Origin: Fluviicola sp.
Lineage (GTDB): Bacteria > Bacteroidota > Bacteroidia > Flavobacteriales_D > Crocinitomicaceae
Assembly: GCA_039810825.1 (NCBI GenBank)
Contig: JBDHXR010000001.1
Span: forward strand, 10,486-74,485
Length of the DNA: 64,000 bases
Reading direction: 5' to 3'
Numbering within the stretch: the stretch's first letter is position 1; every line of letters starts with the position of its first letter. Below, piece by piece: positions 32,761 to 39,146 of the stretch. A program made the translations under genes and the position numbers. The notes below the pieces were generated by a model that saw only the letters and a list, made by a program, of their open reading frames with translations, did no database searches and was not told where the DNA came from.

Positions 32761-33120
32761 ATGAAAACGGCCGTTGCCAACAAGAAGTTAGAAGAAATTA
32801 TTTCCAATGTCGATAAAAAAGGAATCGATTACAAAGGTATAGTTGATGATCTGAAAGAATTGCGCGAGCAAGCTTTGAAAGAACAAGATCCATTGGTTGT
32901 AAAAGTTTTGCGATTGACTTATGAGTTTTTACAAGAAAGAAAAGCGTACGACGTACAGGCACAATTTGACGAAGATGAAGAAGGAAATGAATATCCTCTT
33001 GAAGTTGAAGACAAAGAAAATCTGTTGTATTTGTTGAATTTGCTGAAGAATGCGGATCACAAAATTAACCGTGAAGAGATAAAAGATTTTAGAACTGCAT
33101 TGAAACAAGAATTATACTAA
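32761..33120 (+). CDS. Hypothetical acidic alpha-helical protein
   Basis: 119-aa ORF with an A-rich initiation region, TACATTTG element at 32703-32710 and a terminator directly downstream. Confidence 0.75.
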   Translation: MKTAVANKKLEEIISNVDKKGIDYKGIVDDLKELREQALKEQDPLVVKVLRLTYEFLQERKAYDVQAQFDEDEEGNEYPLEVEDKENLLYLLNLLKNADHKINREEIKDFRTALKQELY

Positions 33121-33139
33121 GATTGAATTCTTTATATTG

Positions 33140-33168
33140 AAGCCACCTTATTGGTGGCTTTTTTGTTT
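33140..33168 (+). terminator. Intrinsic terminator
   Basis: AAGCCACC-TTATT-GGTGGCTT followed by TTTTG. Confidence 0.85.
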
Positions 33169-33211
33169 CCTTTACATCTAATTTTATTTTCTTATTTCAT
33201 ATATTTGTGAG

Positions 33212-33592
33212 GTGAGACGAATTGTCGGAGTTATATTGCTTTTTGTTTTTTTGATGGGGCACACCTCATTCGGGCAATTCATGCGCATTCCTACGCTTAT
33301 TCATCATTATTTTGAACATGTAGAATGGGATAATTCAAGCCTTTCAACATTTCTTTCAGAGCATTATTCATTGCATATAAACCATCCTGATGATAAGCAT
33401 CACGATCATGAAAATCTGCCTTTTAAAACGATTCATGCAGGCGTACATACCGTTGTAATAACTCCACAACCACAATTTTGTCTATTACAAAATGTGTTTT
33501 TCCCTACTAAAACAATTAGTTTAATTTCAAATCAACTTAATTATTCGAACCAATACTTAAATAGTATTTGGCAACCTCCTCGCTTTAGCTAA
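33212..33592 (+). CDS. His-rich exported leader protein upstream of the metal efflux pump
   Basis: Hydrophobic N-terminus, 12 His (HHYFEH, HINHPDDKHHDH), C-terminal SIWQPPRFS; TATATTTG at 33200-33207. Confidence 0.75.
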   Translation: MRRIVGVILLFVFLMGHTSFGQFMRIPTLIHHYFEHVEWDNSSLSTFLSEHYSLHINHPDDKHHDHENLPFKTIHAGVHTVVITPQPQFCLLQNVFFPTKTISLISNQLNYSNQYLNSIWQPPRFS

Positions 33593-33665
33593 TCATTTCT
33601 TTAGAAAGTATTCATGTGTGTTTAAAAAAACACTGTGAGAAGTTTAATGATTAGTTAAGTTTATT

Positions 33666-36600
33666 ATGCTCAATAATATTATTGCGTTCTCTATCAAGAA
33701 CAAACTTATTGTCGGCCTTTTTGTATTGGCCCTTATTGTCTTTGGAATTTTTGAATTAAAAAAATTGCCAATTGATGCTGTACCTGATATTACAAATAAT
33801 CAAGTGCAAGTAATTACAAATGCTCCAGCTCTTGGGGCAACTGATGTTGAGAGATTAATCACCTTTCCCATTGAACAAGTGAGTAACAACCTTCCGGGGT
33901 TGATTGAAATTAGAAGCTTTTCACGTTTCGGTCTGTCTGTTGTTACAATAATATTTGATGACAAAACAGATATTTATTGGGCACGGCAACAAGTAGCTGA
34001 GCGCTTGCAACAGGTAATGGATCAAATTCCTAAAGGAATTGAAAAACCAACCCTTGCCCCAGTAACAACAGGACTAGGTGAGATTTATCAATATACAGTT
34101 CGAACAAAGAAAGGATACGAAGATAAATACAACGCGATGGAGTTGCGCACAATTCAAGATTGGATTGTAAGACGGCAATTGCTTGGAGTTAAAGGCGTGG
34201 CTGAAGTAAGCAGTTTCGGAGGACTGTTGAAGCAGTATGAAGTAGCAGTTGAAATAGAAAAGTTAGTTGCGAACAACGTTACCATAGAAGAAGTTTACAA
34301 TGCACTTGAAAGTAACAACGAGAATACGGGAGGTTCTTACATTGAAAAAGGCCCAACCATTCTATACATTCGAAGCGAAGGATTAGCTTCAAGTATTGAA
34401 GATATTCAAAATACGGTTATTAAAAAATTACCCAATGGAGTGCCAATACTTATTCGAGATATCGGTGAAGTGAAATTCGGGAATGCTCCGCGAAATGGAG
34501 CTTTGACATACAATGGGAAACAACAGGTTTCTGGAGCAGTTGTTATGATGCTAAAAGGCGCAAACAGCAATGAAGTGATTAATAGCATAAAAGAACGTAT
34601 TGCACAAATCGAGAAAACTTTGCCAGAGGGCGTTGTTATTGATCCTTATTTAGACAGATCAAAAATGGTGAATAATGCTATTAGCACTGTTACTAAAAAC
34701 TTATTGGAAGGCGCGTTAATTGTGATTTTTGTGCTTGTTCTATTTATTGGGAATATTCGAGCCGGTTTGTTGGTGGCTTCTGTGATTCCTCTTTCAATGC
34801 TTTTTGCAATCATCATGATGAACTTATTCGGAGTAAGTGGAAATTTGATGAGTCTTGGTGCTTTAGACTTTGGGTTGATTGTTGACGGTTCTGTTATTGT
34901 AGTTGAAGCTGTATTGCACAAAATGAGCAGTAGCAACCGTTTAAATCATAGTATCCAATTTTCTCAACTTGAGATGGATCTGCAAGTACAAAGTTCAGCC
35001 TCTAAAATGATGAACAGCGCTGTTTTCGGGCAGGTAATAATATTGGTAGTTTACCTTCCAATTTTCTCGTTCCAAGGAATTGAAGGAAAAATGTTTATTC
35101 CAATGGCTCAAACAGTTGCATTTGCTTTGTTAGGAGCATTTATTCTTTCCTTGACATACATTCCTATGATGAGTACGTTGATATTGAGTAAAACAAAGAA
35201 AACGAAGCAATCTTTTTCTGATAAGATGATGTCTTTTATTGAAGCGAAGTATCAAAAAGGACTTGTTTTTACAATTCGTTATCAAAAATCCATTTTGCTG
35301 TCAATTTTTGCTTTGTTTCTCTTTGCGCTGTTTACTGCTACCAAATTGGGTGGAGAATTTATTCCTGAACTTCCTGAAGGGGATTTTGCAGTAGAAACCA
35401 GAGTGTTGCCGGGGAGCAACCTGAATACTTCTATTGAAGCAGCATCAAAAGCTTCAAAAATTATTCTTGAAAAGTTTCCAGAAGTAGAACAAGTTGTTGC
35501 TAAAACGGGAAACAGTGAGGTTCCGGTTGACCCTATGCCGGTTGATTTGACCGATATGATAGTGATTTTGAAAAAGCGAAATGAATGGACTTCAGCATCT
35601 ACTTATGAAGAACTTGAAAAGAAAATGGCAAAAGAATTAGAAGCAGTACCGGGTGTGACTTTTGGTTTTCAATTCCCTGTTGCTATGCGCTTTAATGAAC
35701 TTATTTCTGGAGCAAGGCAAGATGTAGTTTGTAAAATTTTTGGAGAAAATCTGGATACACTTGCATATTACGCACATAAAATCGGGAAAATTGTCAATAA
35801 AGTTGATGGAAGTGAAGCCTTGTATGTAGAGAAGGTAACTGGTCTCCCTCAAATAGTAGTTTCATACAATAGAGCTGTTATCGCACAATATGGCTTGTCT
35901 ATTCGTGAAATAAACAGTGTATTGAACAGCGCTTTTGCTGGCGGATATGCCGGTGAAGTTTTTGAAGGGGAAAAACGTTTTGATTTGGTTGTAAGACTAA
36001 GTGGAAACAAGCGGAAAAACCTTGAGGATGTTCAGAAACTACTGATTAACACACCTTCTGGCGCACAAATCCCATTAAACTCTTTAGCAAAAGTTGAAAT
36101 AATTGAAGGTCCAAACCAAATTCAGCGAGAAAACTCACAACGCAGAATAACTGTGGGGTTTAATGTGCGAGATAGAGATGTTCAGAGTACTGTGCATGAT
36201 TTGCAACAAAAAATTGAAAATGAAATTAAATTGCCTGCTGGCTACTTTATTTCCTATGGAGGCGCTTTTGAAAATTTGGTTGATGCAAAAGAACGGTTAT
36301 ACATTGTAGTGCCAATAGCGTTAAGCTTAATTTTTATTTTACTGTTTTTTGCTTTTGGTTCAGTTAAACAAAGTTTATTGATATATACTTCTATTCCATT
36401 ATCTGCAATTGGAGGAATCTTCGCATTGTATGTAAGAGATATTTCGTTTAGTGTAAGTGCAGGAATTGGTTTTATTGCCTTATTTGGAGTTGTAGTATTA
36501 AACGGAATAGTTTTGGTGGCCGAGTTTAACCGTTTACGAAAAGAAGGGATGAACAATTTACTTAAAGTAGTAATTGTTGGGACTACAACACGTTTACGCC

Positions 36601-38009
36601 CTGTTCTGATGACTGCTTTTGTTGCTTCTCTCGGATTTTTACCAATGGCACTGAGCCATGGTGAAGGGGCAGAGGTGCAAAGACCATTGGCAAGTGTAGT
36701 TATTGGCGGGTTATTGGGAGCAACTTTTCTGACACTTTTTATATTGCCAATGTTATACATGTTTGCTTATAGAAAGCATAAAATTGACACTAAAATTTTG
36801 ACACTTCTTATTGTAGGTTTACTGTTTTCAACTCCTAATACCTTTGCCCAGTCAACTATTTCTTTGCCACAAGCTATTGATACAGCCTTGGCAAATAATT
36901 TATCTGTGAAGAATGAACGATTGACAAGTGAATACAAACAAAAGTTGATAAAATCAGGTATTGATGTCCCAAATACAACTGTTTTTGGTGAATATGGACA
37001 AATAAACAGCTATTATTCAGATACGCGTTTAGTGTTTTCCCAGACAATCAATTTCCCTACGGTTTATGCACGGCAAAAATCTGTTTTCAATGAAGAGTGG
37101 AAAAGCAGTGTTTTGAATATAGGTGTAAAAGAAGCGCAATTAAAAATGCTTGTGTCTCAATTGTATGTTGAACTTATATTTCTTCAGCAGAAAAAAGAAT
37201 TATTACTTGCAAATGATAGTATTTATTCAATTTTTTTGATTCGTGCAAACCAACGATATCAGAGCGGTGAAAACAATGCACTTGAAAAAGCAACAGCTGA
37301 AAATATGCGTAACCAAATTGCAATACAACTTAAGCAAATTCTTCAAGACATTGAGCTATTGCAGTTGCAATTTCAACTTGTATTAAACACGTCAGTTTCT
37401 TTTCAGCCTGATGTTCATACCAATTTTTTCAATTCAGTTCATATAATGGATAGTTCTTCTTTATTGGCACACCCAATTCTTGAATTTTACAAACAACAAG
37501 AACAATCAGCACAGGCTGTTTTGAAATTGGAACGTTCTAGATTGCTGCCAGATTTAGTGTTTGGATACAACATTATGGGAATGAAAGGTACTGGTTCAGA
37601 CAACAATGTTTACAATAGAGATCTACGCTTTCAGTCAGTGCAAGTCGGTCTCGGAATACCAATTTTTAATAGCGGAATTAAAGCTCGAATTAATGCAGCA
37701 AAAACAGCTAAGTTAATAGCCTTAAACTCAATGGAACAAGAACAAAAAAAGTTCATGTCAGCATACACATCTGCATCAATGAAGTATCAGTCTAATCAAG
37801 ATATTGTTAATCTTTTCGAATCATCTGCTCTGAAAAATGCAATGCTCATAGCTAACTCAGCTTACAATCAATTTGAAAAAGGAGAAATTAATTACTTGGA
37901 ATTGACTCTGTTGATGAACCAATCTATTCAGATAAAGAGCGATTATATACAAGCATTGAAAGCTCGAAATTTAGCTGCTATTGAACTAAATTATTATTTA
38001 AATAAATAA
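33666..38009 (+). CDS. czcA: CusA/CzcA heavy-metal RND pump fused to a TolC-like outer-membrane factor
   Basis: LPIDAVPDITNNQVQ, GALDFGLIVDG, RLRPVLMT, GAEVQRPLA; extra ~400-aa C-terminal OEP-like domain. Confidence 0.88.
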   Translation: MLNNIIAFSIKNKLIVGLFVLALIVFGIFELKKLPIDAVPDITNNQVQVITNAPALGATDVERLITFPIEQVSNNLPGLIEIRSFSRFGLSVVTIIFDDKTDIYWARQQVAERLQQVMDQIPKGIEKPTLAPVTTGLGEIYQYTVRTKKGYEDKYNAMELRTIQDWIVRRQLLGVKGVAEVSSFGGLLKQYEVAVEIEKLVANNVTIEEVYNALESNNENTGGSYIEKGPTILYIRSEGLASSIEDIQNTVIKKLPNGVPILIRDIGEVKFGNAPRNGALTYNGKQQVSGAVVMMLKGANSNEVINSIKERIAQIEKTLPEGVVIDPYLDRSKMVNNAISTVTKNLLEGALIVIFVLVLFIGNIRAGLLVASVIPLSMLFAIIMMNLFGVSGNLMSLGALDFGLIVDGSVIVVEAVLHKMSSSNRLNHSIQFSQLEMDLQVQSSASKMMNSAVFGQVIILVVYLPIFSFQGIEGKMFIPMAQTVAFALLGAFILSLTYIPMMSTLILSKTKKTKQSFSDKMMSFIEAKYQKGLVFTIRYQKSILLSIFALFLFALFTATKLGGEFIPELPEGDFAVETRVLPGSNLNTSIEAASKASKIILEKFPEVEQVVAKTGNSEVPVDPMPVDLTDMIVILKKRNEWTSASTYEELEKKMAKELEAVPGVTFGFQFPVAMRFNELISGARQDVVCKIFGENLDTLAYYAHKIGKIVNKVDGSEALYVEKVTGLPQIVVSYNRAVIAQYGLSIREINSVLNSAFAGGYAGEVFEGEKRFDLVVRLSGNKRKNLEDVQKLLINTPSGAQIPLNSLAKVEIIEGPNQIQRENSQRRITVGFNVRDRDVQSTVHDLQQKIENEIKLPAGYFISYGGAFENLVDAKERLYIVVPIALSLIFILLFFAFGSVKQSLLIYTSIPLSAIGGIFALYVRDISFSVSAGIGFIALFGVVVLNGIVLVAEFNRLRKEGMNNLLKVVIVGTTTRLRPVLMTAFVASLGFLPMALSHGEGAEVQRPLASVVIGGLLGATFLTLFILPMLYMFAYRKHKIDTKILTLLIVGLLFSTPNTFAQSTISLPQAIDTALANNLSVKNERLTSEYKQKLIKSGIDVPNTTVFGEYGQINSYYSDTRLVFSQTINFPTVYARQKSVFNEEWKSSVLNIGVKEAQLKMLVSQLYVELIFLQQKKELLLANDSIYSIFLIRANQRYQSGENNALEKATAENMRNQIAIQLKQILQDIELLQLQFQLVLNTSVSFQPDVHTNFFNSVHIMDSSSLLAHPILEFYKQQEQSAQAVLKLERSRLLPDLVFGYNIMGMKGTGSDNNVYNRDLRFQSVQVGLGIPIFNSGIKARINAAKTAKLIALNSMEQEQKKFMSAYTSASMKYQSNQDIVNLFESSALKNAMLIANSAYNQFEKGEINYLELTLLMNQSIQIKSDYIQALKARNLAAIELNYYLNK

Positions 38010-38021
38010 CAAAACACTAAA

Positions 38022-39146
38022 ATGAAGAAGTCTCTTTTTATGCTAATGTCCACAACAGTTTTGTTTGCTTGTGGAAGTAGCAACAACGAATCACAATCTC
38101 CTCAACAAAAGGAGAATGTATTAACACTTACAGAAGTGCAATACAATAATGCAGCTATTGAAACTACACGAATAGTGAATCAAGCAATGGCAACTCAAAT
38201 TAAGTTGAATGGAAGGGTTGAAGTTCCTCCTCAAAACAGAATTTCAGTTAGTTTCCCATTAGGAGGATATTTGAAATCAACAAAACTTTTGGAAGGAATG
38301 CCGGTAAAAAAAGGCCAAATTTTGGCTGTTTTAGAAGATATGCAGTTTATTCAGCTGCAGGAGGATTTCCTAACAGCCAAAGCACAATTGTCTTTGACAG
38401 AAAGTGAATTCAAGCGTCAGAAGGAACTAAATCAGACAAAAGCTACCAGTGATAAACTATTCGAGCAAGCACGGGCAAACTTTCAAACTAAATTAGTTGC
38501 AATAAAATCGTTGGAAGAAAAATTAAAACTTATTGGTGTAAATCCCGAAAAACTTAACGATAACACGATTTCTAAAAGTATCAATGTGTATGCACCAATT
38601 TCTGGCTATGTTTCTGTTGTTAATGTAAATGTTGGGAAATATGTTCTTCCGAGCGAAGTGATGTTCGAATTGATTGACCCAAGCTTGATATATCTATCAC
38701 TCACAGCTTTTGAAAAAGACATCAATGCACTTGCAGTTGGTCAAAAGCTAAGCGCATATTCCAATACAAATCCGGAGTTAAAATTTCCATGCACGATTAC
38801 TTTTGTTAAAAAAGACCTTCAAAATCAAAGTTCGGCTTCAGTTATCTGTAGTTTTGATAGATTTGACAAGACTTTGGTGCCTGGATTGTTTATGAATGCA
38901 GAGGTTGAACTGACTAATCAAGCAAGAAATGCCTTACCAAATGATGCAATAGTTCGATTTGAAAACAAGCAATATGTTTTTGTTGTTAAATCAAAACGCA
39001 CATTTGAAATGAATGAAGTAAAAGTTGGCACTTCTGAAAATGGCTATACTGAAGTGGTAAATTCAAACAATTTTGAAAACGAACTTTTTGTCGCCAAAGG
39101 AGCATATACACTACTGATGGCGTTGAAAAATGAAGGTGAAGAATAA
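38022..39146 (+). CDS. RND periplasmic adaptor lipoprotein, CzcB-like
   Basis: Lipobox LFACG; GMPVKKGQ.L lipoyl-like halves, coiled coil, PGLFMNA. Confidence 0.88.
   Translation: MKKSLFMLMSTTVLFACGSSNNESQSPQQKENVLTLTEVQYNNAAIETTRIVNQAMATQIKLNGRVEVPPQNRISVSFPLGGYLKSTKLLEGMPVKKGQILAVLEDMQFIQLQEDFLTAKAQLSLTESEFKRQKELNQTKATSDKLFEQARANFQTKLVAIKSLEEKLKLIGVNPEKLNDNTISKSINVYAPISGYVSVVNVNVGKYVLPSEVMFELIDPSLIYLSLTAFEKDINALAVGQKLSAYSNTNPELKFPCTITFVKKDLQNQSSASVICSFDRFDKTLVPGLFMNAEVELTNQARNALPNDAIVRFENKQYVFVVKSKRTFEMNEVKVGTSENGYTEVVNSNNFENELFVAKGAYTLLMALKNEGEE

Follow-up and report, generated by a model that had tools for sequence, protein, structure and literature searches.

The closest described system to the one reported here is CutF of Rhodobacter capsulatus (cutFOG), a small protein exported through Sec and the signal recognition particle (SRP) that carries a CxxxC copper site and a C-terminal proline motif; a copper-prolonged pause in its translation melts a stem-loop over cutO's ribosome-binding site (PMC9973294; bioRxiv 10.1101/2025.02.05.636593). 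CutF works exclusively in cis, and the exported protein is broken down (PMC9973294; bioRxiv 10.1101/2025.02.05.636593); its authors could not distinguish initiation on the downstream gene by the paused ribosome itself from initiation by a second one (bioRxiv 10.1101/2025.02.05.636593). A rule-based ‘CutF-like’ class comprises 5334 proteins, many of them from Bacteroidota and many encoded beside ACR_tran (CzcA/CusA) genes, and its His-only clusters adjoin HupE/UreJ, not resistance–nodulation–division (RND) pumps (PMC9973294). CruR of Bordetella pertussis likewise mediates post-transcriptional control of the next gene in response to a transition metal (PMC9426467). Here we analysed a stretch of 64,000 nucleotides (nt) from Fluviicola sp. 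(Bacteroidota; assembly GCA_039810825.1, contig JBDHXR010000001.1, positions 10,486–74,485 of the forward strand), referred to below as the window, in which a small leader gene precedes a czcA-type gene for a heavy-metal efflux pump. The leader protein ends in a conserved IWQPP(R/K) motif at a nearly fixed distance from the stop codon, and the stop codon is predicted to pair with the czcA start region in an RNA helix that recurs across the family. We lean towards the view that the leader is a CutF-like nascent-chain sensor, the translation of which controls the leader–czcA(–OEP)–czcB operon in cis.

The leader gene and the family to which it belongs were defined by a homologue search, a Pfam and NCBIfam scan and a survey of the phylum:

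33212–33592, forward strand: leader gene of an unnamed Bacteroidota family.

The open reading frame (ORF) starts with GTG at 33212 and ends with a TAA stop codon at 33590–33592. It encodes 126 amino acids (aa), 12 of them His, with the C terminus IWQPPRFS and the Pro-Pro codons at 33575–33580. A reading of the window made from its letters and ORFs (the original prediction) had singled out this ORF ending in WQPPRFS, with a stop codon inside the 5′ arm of a stem and an inner hairpin behind it, as a candidate metal-sensing, ribosome-stalling attenuator in front of czcA; all of these features are present where it placed them. We found 58 homologues of about 127 aa (mostly about 125–130 aa) with 33–62% identity to the leader, plus one entry that is 98% identical. 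The leader has no Pfam match at E ≤ 0.1, DUF2946 included, and no NCBIfam match; all 59 family members have no Pfam match, DUF2946 included, even at E ≤ 10, and likewise none in NCBIfam. A family profile finds 1 copy in the genome from which the window comes, and relatives in 52 of 401 sampled Bacteroidota genomes (13%), which represent 36 of 180 genera and do not all belong to one class. The leader ORF is a real, widespread protein-coding gene of an unnamed family. We read 30 loci from close relatives and 29 from more distant ones, which were found with a hidden Markov model built from the alignment of the close homologues; metagenome contigs contributed at least 3 of the loci. Start codons across the family loci are GTG (27), ATG (12), TTG (9) and CTG (5). 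Some members (L018, 994–1380; L058; the matches in G091 and G155) have in-frame stops within the leader, with the C-terminal motif and the helix still recognisable; these may be pseudogenes or sequencing errors.

Set beside the rules that delimit the CutF-like class, the leader is short (126 aa, below the limit of 150 aa) and carries its Pro-Pro pair at P122–P123 of 126, with 2–3 residues after it in 55 of 55 homologues. A czcA gene lies downstream, 73 nt away in the window and 43–368 nt away in 52 other loci (43–151 nt in 50 of the 53 czcA-linked loci). A His motif of candidate metal ligands is found in the mature part of the protein (H32, H36 and H51, plus the His/Asp run at 58–67). The feature on which the CutF mechanism depends also has a counterpart here, a stem that masks the initiation region and starts 0–10 nt after the Pro-Pro codons in 48 of 50 loci.

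In the window, the RNA around the leader stop codon is laid out as follows:

33584–33597, forward strand: 5′ arm of the closing helix, covering the last two sense codons and the TAA stop codon (33590–33592).

33611–33639, forward strand: inner hairpin, seen in the fold; its sequence is not conserved.

33646–33659, forward strand: 3′ arm of the closing helix, at −20 to −7 of czcA, in the translation initiation region.

The core of the 5′ arm, TTAGCTAATCATT (33585–33597), pairs with AATGATTAGTTAA (33646–33658) with one G·U pair, and an extra U·G pair lengthens the helix to 14 base pairs (bp; 33584–33597 with 33646–33659). The czcA ATG is at 33666, 7 nt after 33658, and the extended 3′ arm ends 6 nt before it. 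The minimum free energy (MFE) of 33560–33690 is −27.3 kcal/mol (z = −2.68), and 2 of 200 shuffled sequences fold equally well. On its own this statistic is suggestive; it is the comparative data that we regard as decisive. The MFE fold of every close locus shares a closing stem between the last sense codons with the stop codon and a segment shortly before the czcA ATG. The stem is present in 50 of 53 loci, with the whole stop codon inside it in 44 of these 50, and the triplet opposite the stop codon changes in step with it (TAA with TTA in 32 loci, TAG with CTA in 7, TGA with TCA in 1). The 3′ arm ends between 16 nt before the ATG and 6 nt past the first base of the ATG in 49 of the 50 loci, and 27 nt before it in the remaining one. 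The arms are wholly divergent in sequence across the family and the layout is constant, as in the pairs GTTCTTAGTT / AACTAAGAAC, CGCTTTAGCTAA / TTAATTAAAGCG, TTTCAATTAATCATT / AATGATTAATTGAAA, GTTTCAGCT / AGCTGAAAC, ATTTAATGAAACA / TGTTTCATTAAAT and CTGTTGATTG / TGATCAACAG; in several loci, including that with the pair CATAGCCTAAATT / AATTTAAGTTATG, the arm takes in the ATG itself. Most relatives have two inner hairpins where the window has one, and the hairpins differ in length and sequence as well.

A plain MAFFT alignment of 28 spacers gave no predicted structure with RNAalifold, because of the variable middle, which left the alignment full of gaps and pulled apart the arms of divergent loci. 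We therefore used tests that need no alignment, comparing cognate with non-cognate arms, displaced windows and shuffled sequences. Cognate arms form duplexes with a mean of −11.0 kcal/mol, against −6.3 kcal/mol for non-cognate arms, −4.5 to −8.7 kcal/mol for windows displaced by 30–80 nt and an average of −5.75 kcal/mol for shuffled 3′ segments; 0 of 20000 permutations of the partners reached the cognate mean. Kinship between loci inflates permutation tests of this kind, yet the divergent arms rank first. On these comparisons, a conserved, covarying, long-range helix joins the leader stop codon and its flanks to the 10–15 nt upstream of, or including, the czcA start, and the covariation that would be expected if the stem proposed in the original prediction were real is borne out.

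Two other identities for this RNA were considered. A riboswitch or aptamer is unlikely, as only the closing helix is conserved, the inner hairpins are variable and there is no Rfam match: a search of 33100–33800 with the Rfam 15 covariance models at E ≤ 10 gave no credible match, and the nine matches listed all score far below their gathering thresholds, those with E < 1 overlapping the terminator of the upstream gene. An intrinsic terminator is also unlikely, because across the family the helix has no U-run after it and the tails are A-rich. The term ‘attenuator’, under which the element was first proposed, is for this reason best dropped; the control is likely to fall on translation initiation. 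The 3′ arm also holds, at 33648–33659, a three-codon mini-ORF (ATG ATT AGT TAA) just 5′ of the czcA ATG. Start regions of Bacteroidota genes normally contain no upstream AUG. The mini-ORF is kept in the close subfamily (as ATG ATT AAC TAA) and not in distant relatives, and may be a by-product of the complementarity.

The protein motif directly before the helix is also conserved:

33542–33589, forward strand: conserved C-terminal block YSNQYLNSIWQPPRFS, a putative ribosome-pausing motif, on the basis of conservation and codon variation.

The tail reads IWQPPRFS in 40 of 59 sequences, and nearly all others are conservative variants. Across about 50 loci, a family consensus of [IV][WF]QPP[RK] is near-invariant; I119, Q121, P122, P123 and R124 are conserved at 80–100% over 51 loci. 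The number of residues that follow the Pro-Pro pair is 3 in 51 of 55 homologues and 2 in the remaining 4. Synonymous codon use is free: Gln is CAA in 26 cases and CAG in 22, both Pro positions use all four codons, the Arg position is CGN, AGA or AAR (Lys), and the last-residue Ser comes from both AGY and TCN codons. Free variation of the codons under conserved residues indicates that the motif is selected as a peptide. Both the conservation of WQPP and its fixed distance from the stop codon, which the original prediction had made tests of the idea, thus hold across the family. In Escherichia coli, stalling is promoted when W or Q immediately precedes a PPP stretch (PMC4176338), and by analogy these data lend weak support to stalling at QPP.

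Upstream of the motif, the leader protein divides into an N-terminal domain and a long spacer:

33212–33274, forward strand: signal-peptide-like N terminus, residues 1–21, with RR, a 12-residue hydrophobic core and the end SFG before Q; AlphaFold2 (AF2) predicts a helix at residues 2–15.

33305–33367, forward strand: family-invariant H32-x-x-E35-H36 plus H51-Y52, a candidate metal site, on the basis of conservation and of predicted helices at residues 26–40 and 44–51.

33383–33427, forward strand: His/Asp run H58-PDDKHHDHE67 plus invariant L69-P70-F71-K72, from the family alignment.

33428–33541, forward strand: spacer, residues 73–110, variable in sequence, constant in length and predicted to be disordered.

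In the subfamily of the window, the N terminus has an RR or KK n-region, a 12-residue hydrophobic core and the end (A/S)FG before Q, where cleavage is inferred from the sequence. Over 51 loci, H32, H36, H51 and Y52 are conserved at 100% and E35 at 88%; the full set of invariant or near-invariant positions, with distant relatives included, is P27, H32, E35, H36, F47, H51, Y52, L69-P70-F71-K72, I119, Q121, P122, P123 and R124. The HxxEH...H arrangement on two predicted helices looks like a metal site, and its HxxEH part is spaced like the ‘inverted zincin’ zinc motif. The DDKHHDHE run is confined to the subfamily of the window, distant members carrying an acidic D.D...D in its place, so that H32, H36 and H51 appear more likely than this run to be the conserved metal site. 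What the family conserves is this set of three histidines, not the total of 12 His residues named in the original prediction.

From the HHDH core to the first Pro is 56–57 aa in 51 of 55 homologues. The roughly 40 aa between LPFK72 and the C-terminal block are poorly conserved and predicted to be disordered, with a predicted local distance difference test score (pLDDT) below 50 for residues 75–104 in the AF2 model, which as a whole is of medium confidence (pLDDT 68). For CutF, it was argued that a distance of 45 aa brings the metal site to SecY's periplasmic mouth (PMC9973294), and by the same reasoning the 56–57 aa would correspond to about the length of the exit tunnel plus the translocon.

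The co-occurrence of motif, fixed distance and helix in about 50 diverse loci points to one integrated device, for which we propose the following sequence of events. With the helix closed, czcA initiation would be poor. The hydrophobic N terminus would send the nascent leader chain co-translationally to the Sec translocon. When the ribosome arrives at IWQPP(R/K), 2–3 codons before the stop codon, about 55 residues would span the exit tunnel and the translocon, and the N-terminal domain with HxxEH...H, the His/Asp run and LPFK would just have emerged on the periplasmic side. A divalent metal bound there, which we propose to be Zn, Cd or Co because the pump is of the CzcA type, would alter the pulling force on the chain and lengthen the pause at the Pro-Pro or the following codons. 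The helicase activity and footprint of the paused ribosome would hold the 5′ arm single-stranded, leaving the czcA start accessible together with the 3′ arm, and synthesis of the pump would follow. In the absence of metal, translation of the leader would end quickly with its release, and the helix would close again. We grade the parts separately: it is very likely that translation of the leader opens the helix, a ribosome pause at QPP is likely, and modulation of that pause by metal on the exported N-terminal domain is plausible only by analogy.

The geometry is compatible with the first of these steps. In 48 of 50 loci, pairing begins 0–10 nt beyond the second Pro codon, and a ribosome whose P and A sites hold Pro-Pro would at this distance invade the lower part of the helix, that is, the pairs formed by the nt nearest the ATG. 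We modelled this with partition-function folds of 52 loci in which a ribosome footprint of 27 nt was masked, and took the mean unpaired probability of czcA −18 to +3:

No ribosome: 0.39 with the full RNA, 0.38 with the upstream RNA omitted; 0.26 for the locus in the window with the upstream RNA omitted.

Ribosome 10 codons before the Pro-Pro pair: 0.38 with the full RNA (no effect).

First Pro codon in the P site: 0.51 with the full RNA, 0.52 with the upstream RNA omitted; 0.35 for the locus in the window.

Ribosome at the stop codon: 0.57 with the full RNA, 0.56 with the upstream RNA omitted; 0.51 for the locus in the window.

On these values, a pause one or two codons past the Pro-Pro pair, or termination, would be more effective than a pause on the pair. 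The earlier suggestion that a ribosome at QPP frees the czcA start therefore keeps part of its force: the model gives a modest opening (0.26 to 0.35 in the window), but the ribosome reaches only the lower helix, and one at the stop codon opens more (0.51). In the window, the leader segment AACTTAATTATTCG (33534–33549) can pair with the 3′ arm at 13 of 14 positions (against 33646–33661). In the model, this alternative helix would keep the czcA start masked while the 5′ arm is occupied. Displaced-window controls show that the alternative pairing is not conserved in relatives, so we treat it as a caveat for the locus in the window and not as a feature of the family.

Several observations weigh against a nascent-chain sensor. 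QPP is not a proven arrest motif and lies outside the [RQH][AG]P[PG] RAPP class. The motif is not of the RAPP type that the original prediction had cited as a precedent, the core being [WF]QPP and not [R/Q/H]-[A/G]-P-[P/G], as that class is defined (PMC10987492, PMC12992588). Distant relatives lack a canonical −3/−1 signal-peptide cleavage site. Di-proline pauses are normally resolved by EF-P. With Pro-Pro in the P and A sites, the ribosome gets no further than the lower half of the helix, the modelled opening in the window is small for such a ribosome (0.26 to 0.35), and when the full leader RNA of the window is free, masking gives no net opening of the czcA start, because the freed 3′ arm can re-pair with about 33534–33549. 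Arm pairing was scored on best-fitting stems, and the per-position pair tables accordingly favour structure; the permutation and displaced-window controls are unaffected. Termination of the leader would by itself be enough to open the helix, so that coupling does not strictly require a pause, and the strong conservation of the 50-aa N-terminal domain could mean that the mature protein has its own job.

These last two points lead to the main rival explanation, constitutive translational coupling of czcA to a leader that works as a stable, CzcI- or CusF-like periplasmic metal-binding accessory or regulator of the pump. The IWQPPR tail would be a structural or interaction motif of the mature protein, and the helix, by tying czcA initiation to termination at the leader stop codon, would fix stoichiometry without sensing anything. 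The highly conserved N-terminal domain with its HxxEH...H pattern and the wider opening by a ribosome at the stop codon than by one on the Pro-Pro pair both agree with such coupling, small periplasmic metal-binding proteins being common in metal-resistance operons; CzcI itself is classed as CutF-like without having a Pro motif (PMC9973294). What coupling leaves unaccounted for is a C-terminal half that is predicted to be disordered and is variable, yet keeps a constant length, and a motif that stands invariant 2–3 codons from the stop codon, directly before the helix, in 55 homologues. Moreover, CutF, which is similarly built, is degraded after export and acts only in cis. We consider this explanation rather improbable, although it is the one that we take most seriously beside a sensor.

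An alternative in which control is transcriptional fares less well. By analogy with CruR, a DUF2946 protein with a RAPP motif that uses Rho-dependent termination in a 162-nt spacer (PMC9426467), the presence of a ribosome on the Pro motif, or its release, could decide termination by Rho (or RNA polymerase pausing) within the 60–150-nt spacer, with the helix as part of the decision and not as a mask. The spacers of the family, mostly 60–150 nt with inner hairpins, would offer room for this. What is conserved, however, is that the stop codon pairs with the czcA start region, in several loci with the ATG included; the inner spacer is not conserved, and across the family the helix is followed by A-rich tails with no U-run. 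We judge this reading unlikely. Still less credible is a helix that serves only as an element of mRNA stability or processing, or that sets stop and start side by side for ribosome hand-over with no nascent-chain pause and a coincidentally conserved Pro motif: it would bring the stop codon and the ATG within a few nt in space, and for CutF, too, initiation by the paused and by a second ribosome cannot be separated, but helices of 7–18 bp are too short for RNase III, and an invariant motif, a fixed distance and a helix occur together in about 50 diverse loci.

The surroundings of the leader place it at the head of an operon for metal efflux:

33139–33161, forward strand: intrinsic terminator of the upstream gene, a 9-bp stem with 5 G-C pairs followed by the T-run TTTGTTTCCT.

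33200–33207, forward strand: Bacteroidota sigmaA −7 box TATATTTG, which ends 4 nt before the leader start codon.

33666–38009, forward strand: czcA-type RND heavy-metal efflux pump fused to an OEP/TolC-like domain, 1447 aa (TIGR00914, 1150.7 bits; PF00873; PF02321).

38022–39146, forward strand: CzcB-type periplasmic adaptor, 374 aa, the last gene of the operon (TIGR01730, TIGR00999, PF16576).

A czcA gene (MLNKII.FS.KNKL...) follows the leader in all readable loci (28 from close relatives, the window and 25 distant ones) except L039 and L046. Those two relatives end in IFHPPR[IV]*, stand upstream of a 171-aa membrane protein (MNSVQ.HLALTHVPVIL...) and have no clear closing helix. As a rule, related loci also encode CzcA and OEP as a single-ORF fusion, about 1450 aa long. 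The genes upstream of the leader are unrelated in different loci, which indicates that the leader heads the operon, and in the window the terminator at 33139–33161 marks the 5′ boundary of the leader–czcA–czcB transcription unit. The gene before it on the same strand (32761–33120) encodes an acidic 119-aa protein of unknown family with only a weak PGA_cap match. The window has no regulator gene beside the leader, the neighbours being LysE, a MORN-repeat protein and SufE/SufS/FeS-assembly genes.

In Flavobacterium, the −7 box lies at −12 to −5 from the transcription start site, with a gap of 4–5 nt between box and start site, and only about 5% of mRNAs are leaderless (PMC9723704; PMC6847099). 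Applied to the window, this spacing rule puts the predicted transcription start at the G of the GTG at 33212. Of 53 family loci, 22 have TAnnTTTG (the strict pattern) at exactly −12 to −5 relative to the start codon, and 35 have a box of a relaxed pattern at −11 to −13. The leader mRNA is thus probably leaderless with a GUG start. Bacteroidota do not use Shine–Dalgarno pairing, and initiation is tuned by structure at the start codon and by upstream adenines (PMC6847099).

Gene regulation without Shine–Dalgarno sequences in Bacteroidota and the control of heavy-metal efflux are both poorly known. If the sensor proposed here is real, a family found in 13% of the sampled genomes of the phylum would be a built-in metal switch for RND pumps that needs no protein in trans; the principle of CutF and CruR would reach a further phylum and gain ligands, an arrest motif and an RNA geometry that are all new to it; and the motif could serve as a new tool for studies of force and arrest. 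For annotation, both the family and the RNA element are absent from Pfam, NCBIfam and Rfam. A more far-reaching version can be offered only tentatively, and we doubt that all of it would hold: the locus would be the first translational-arrest metal sensor of Bacteroidota, mechanistically distinct in that 70S ribosomes read a leaderless mRNA from its very first codon, that a chain passing through SecYEG senses periplasmic Zn, Cd or Co through HxxEH...H with its timing set by a tunnel-plus-translocon ruler of about 56 residues, and that a pause at a new arrest motif, IWQPP[R/K], melts a stop-codon helix and so exposes the pump start, perhaps with hand-over of the same ribosome; it would act as the main regulator-free switch of CzcA-type pumps in about one-eighth of Bacteroidota genomes.

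Among known systems, CzcI, encoded upstream of czcCBA in Cupriavidus metallidurans, is a small exported protein, as the leader probably is, encoded before a czc operon and with a suspected regulatory role (PMC9973294); it differs in lacking a C-terminal Pro motif, in having no described stop-codon helix, in its phylum and in the absence of detectable homology. SecM, ApdA and ApdP are exported, as the leader probably is, and have a C-terminal arrest sequence a few codons before the stop codon, where the leader has its putative pausing motif, and an RNA structure that hides the downstream start until a ribosome pauses (PMC7897499, PMC10951233, PMC10987492, PMC12992588). These proteins, however, monitor Sec/YidC, regulate secretion genes and carry no metal-ligand domain, and their core is [RQH][AG]P[PG] or RAGP whereas that of the leader is WQPP. 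The gene downstream of the leader is a CzcA-family RND pump and not a protein-localisation factor, as would be expected of a Sec/YidC monitor (SecM, MifM, VemP). CruR (Bp2923, DUF2946) resembles the leader in being encoded upstream and in combining a metal motif with Pro-Pro near the C terminus (PMC9426467), but it is from another protein family, its motifs are CXXC and RAPP, it works independently of a signal peptide and it acts through Rho-dependent termination, with metal relieving arrest and the importer being switched off (PMC9426467).

CutF remains the nearest comparison. In both systems, a leader lies directly upstream of a metal-homeostasis gene on the same strand, a stem covers the downstream initiation region, and action is in cis, as demonstrated for CutF and proposed here. 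The two proteins have no detectable sequence homology; the candidate ligands of the leader are His, Glu and Asp (HxxEH...H), in contrast to the CxxxC of CutF, and its motif is IWQPP(R/K), not PPP. Whereas the CutF element is a local stem-loop over a Shine–Dalgarno sequence, the helix of the leader contains the leader's own stop codon and closes a multi-hairpin spacer of 60–150 nt, in a transcript that is predicted to be leaderless and in a phylum without Shine–Dalgarno pairing. The target of CutF is a Tat-exported oxidase, that of the leader an inner-membrane RND pump fused to an outer-membrane channel. By analogy, it seems to us somewhat probable that the leader uses the mechanism of CutF in Bacteroidota, with a protein family that is not homologous to CutF and with an RND pump as the target.

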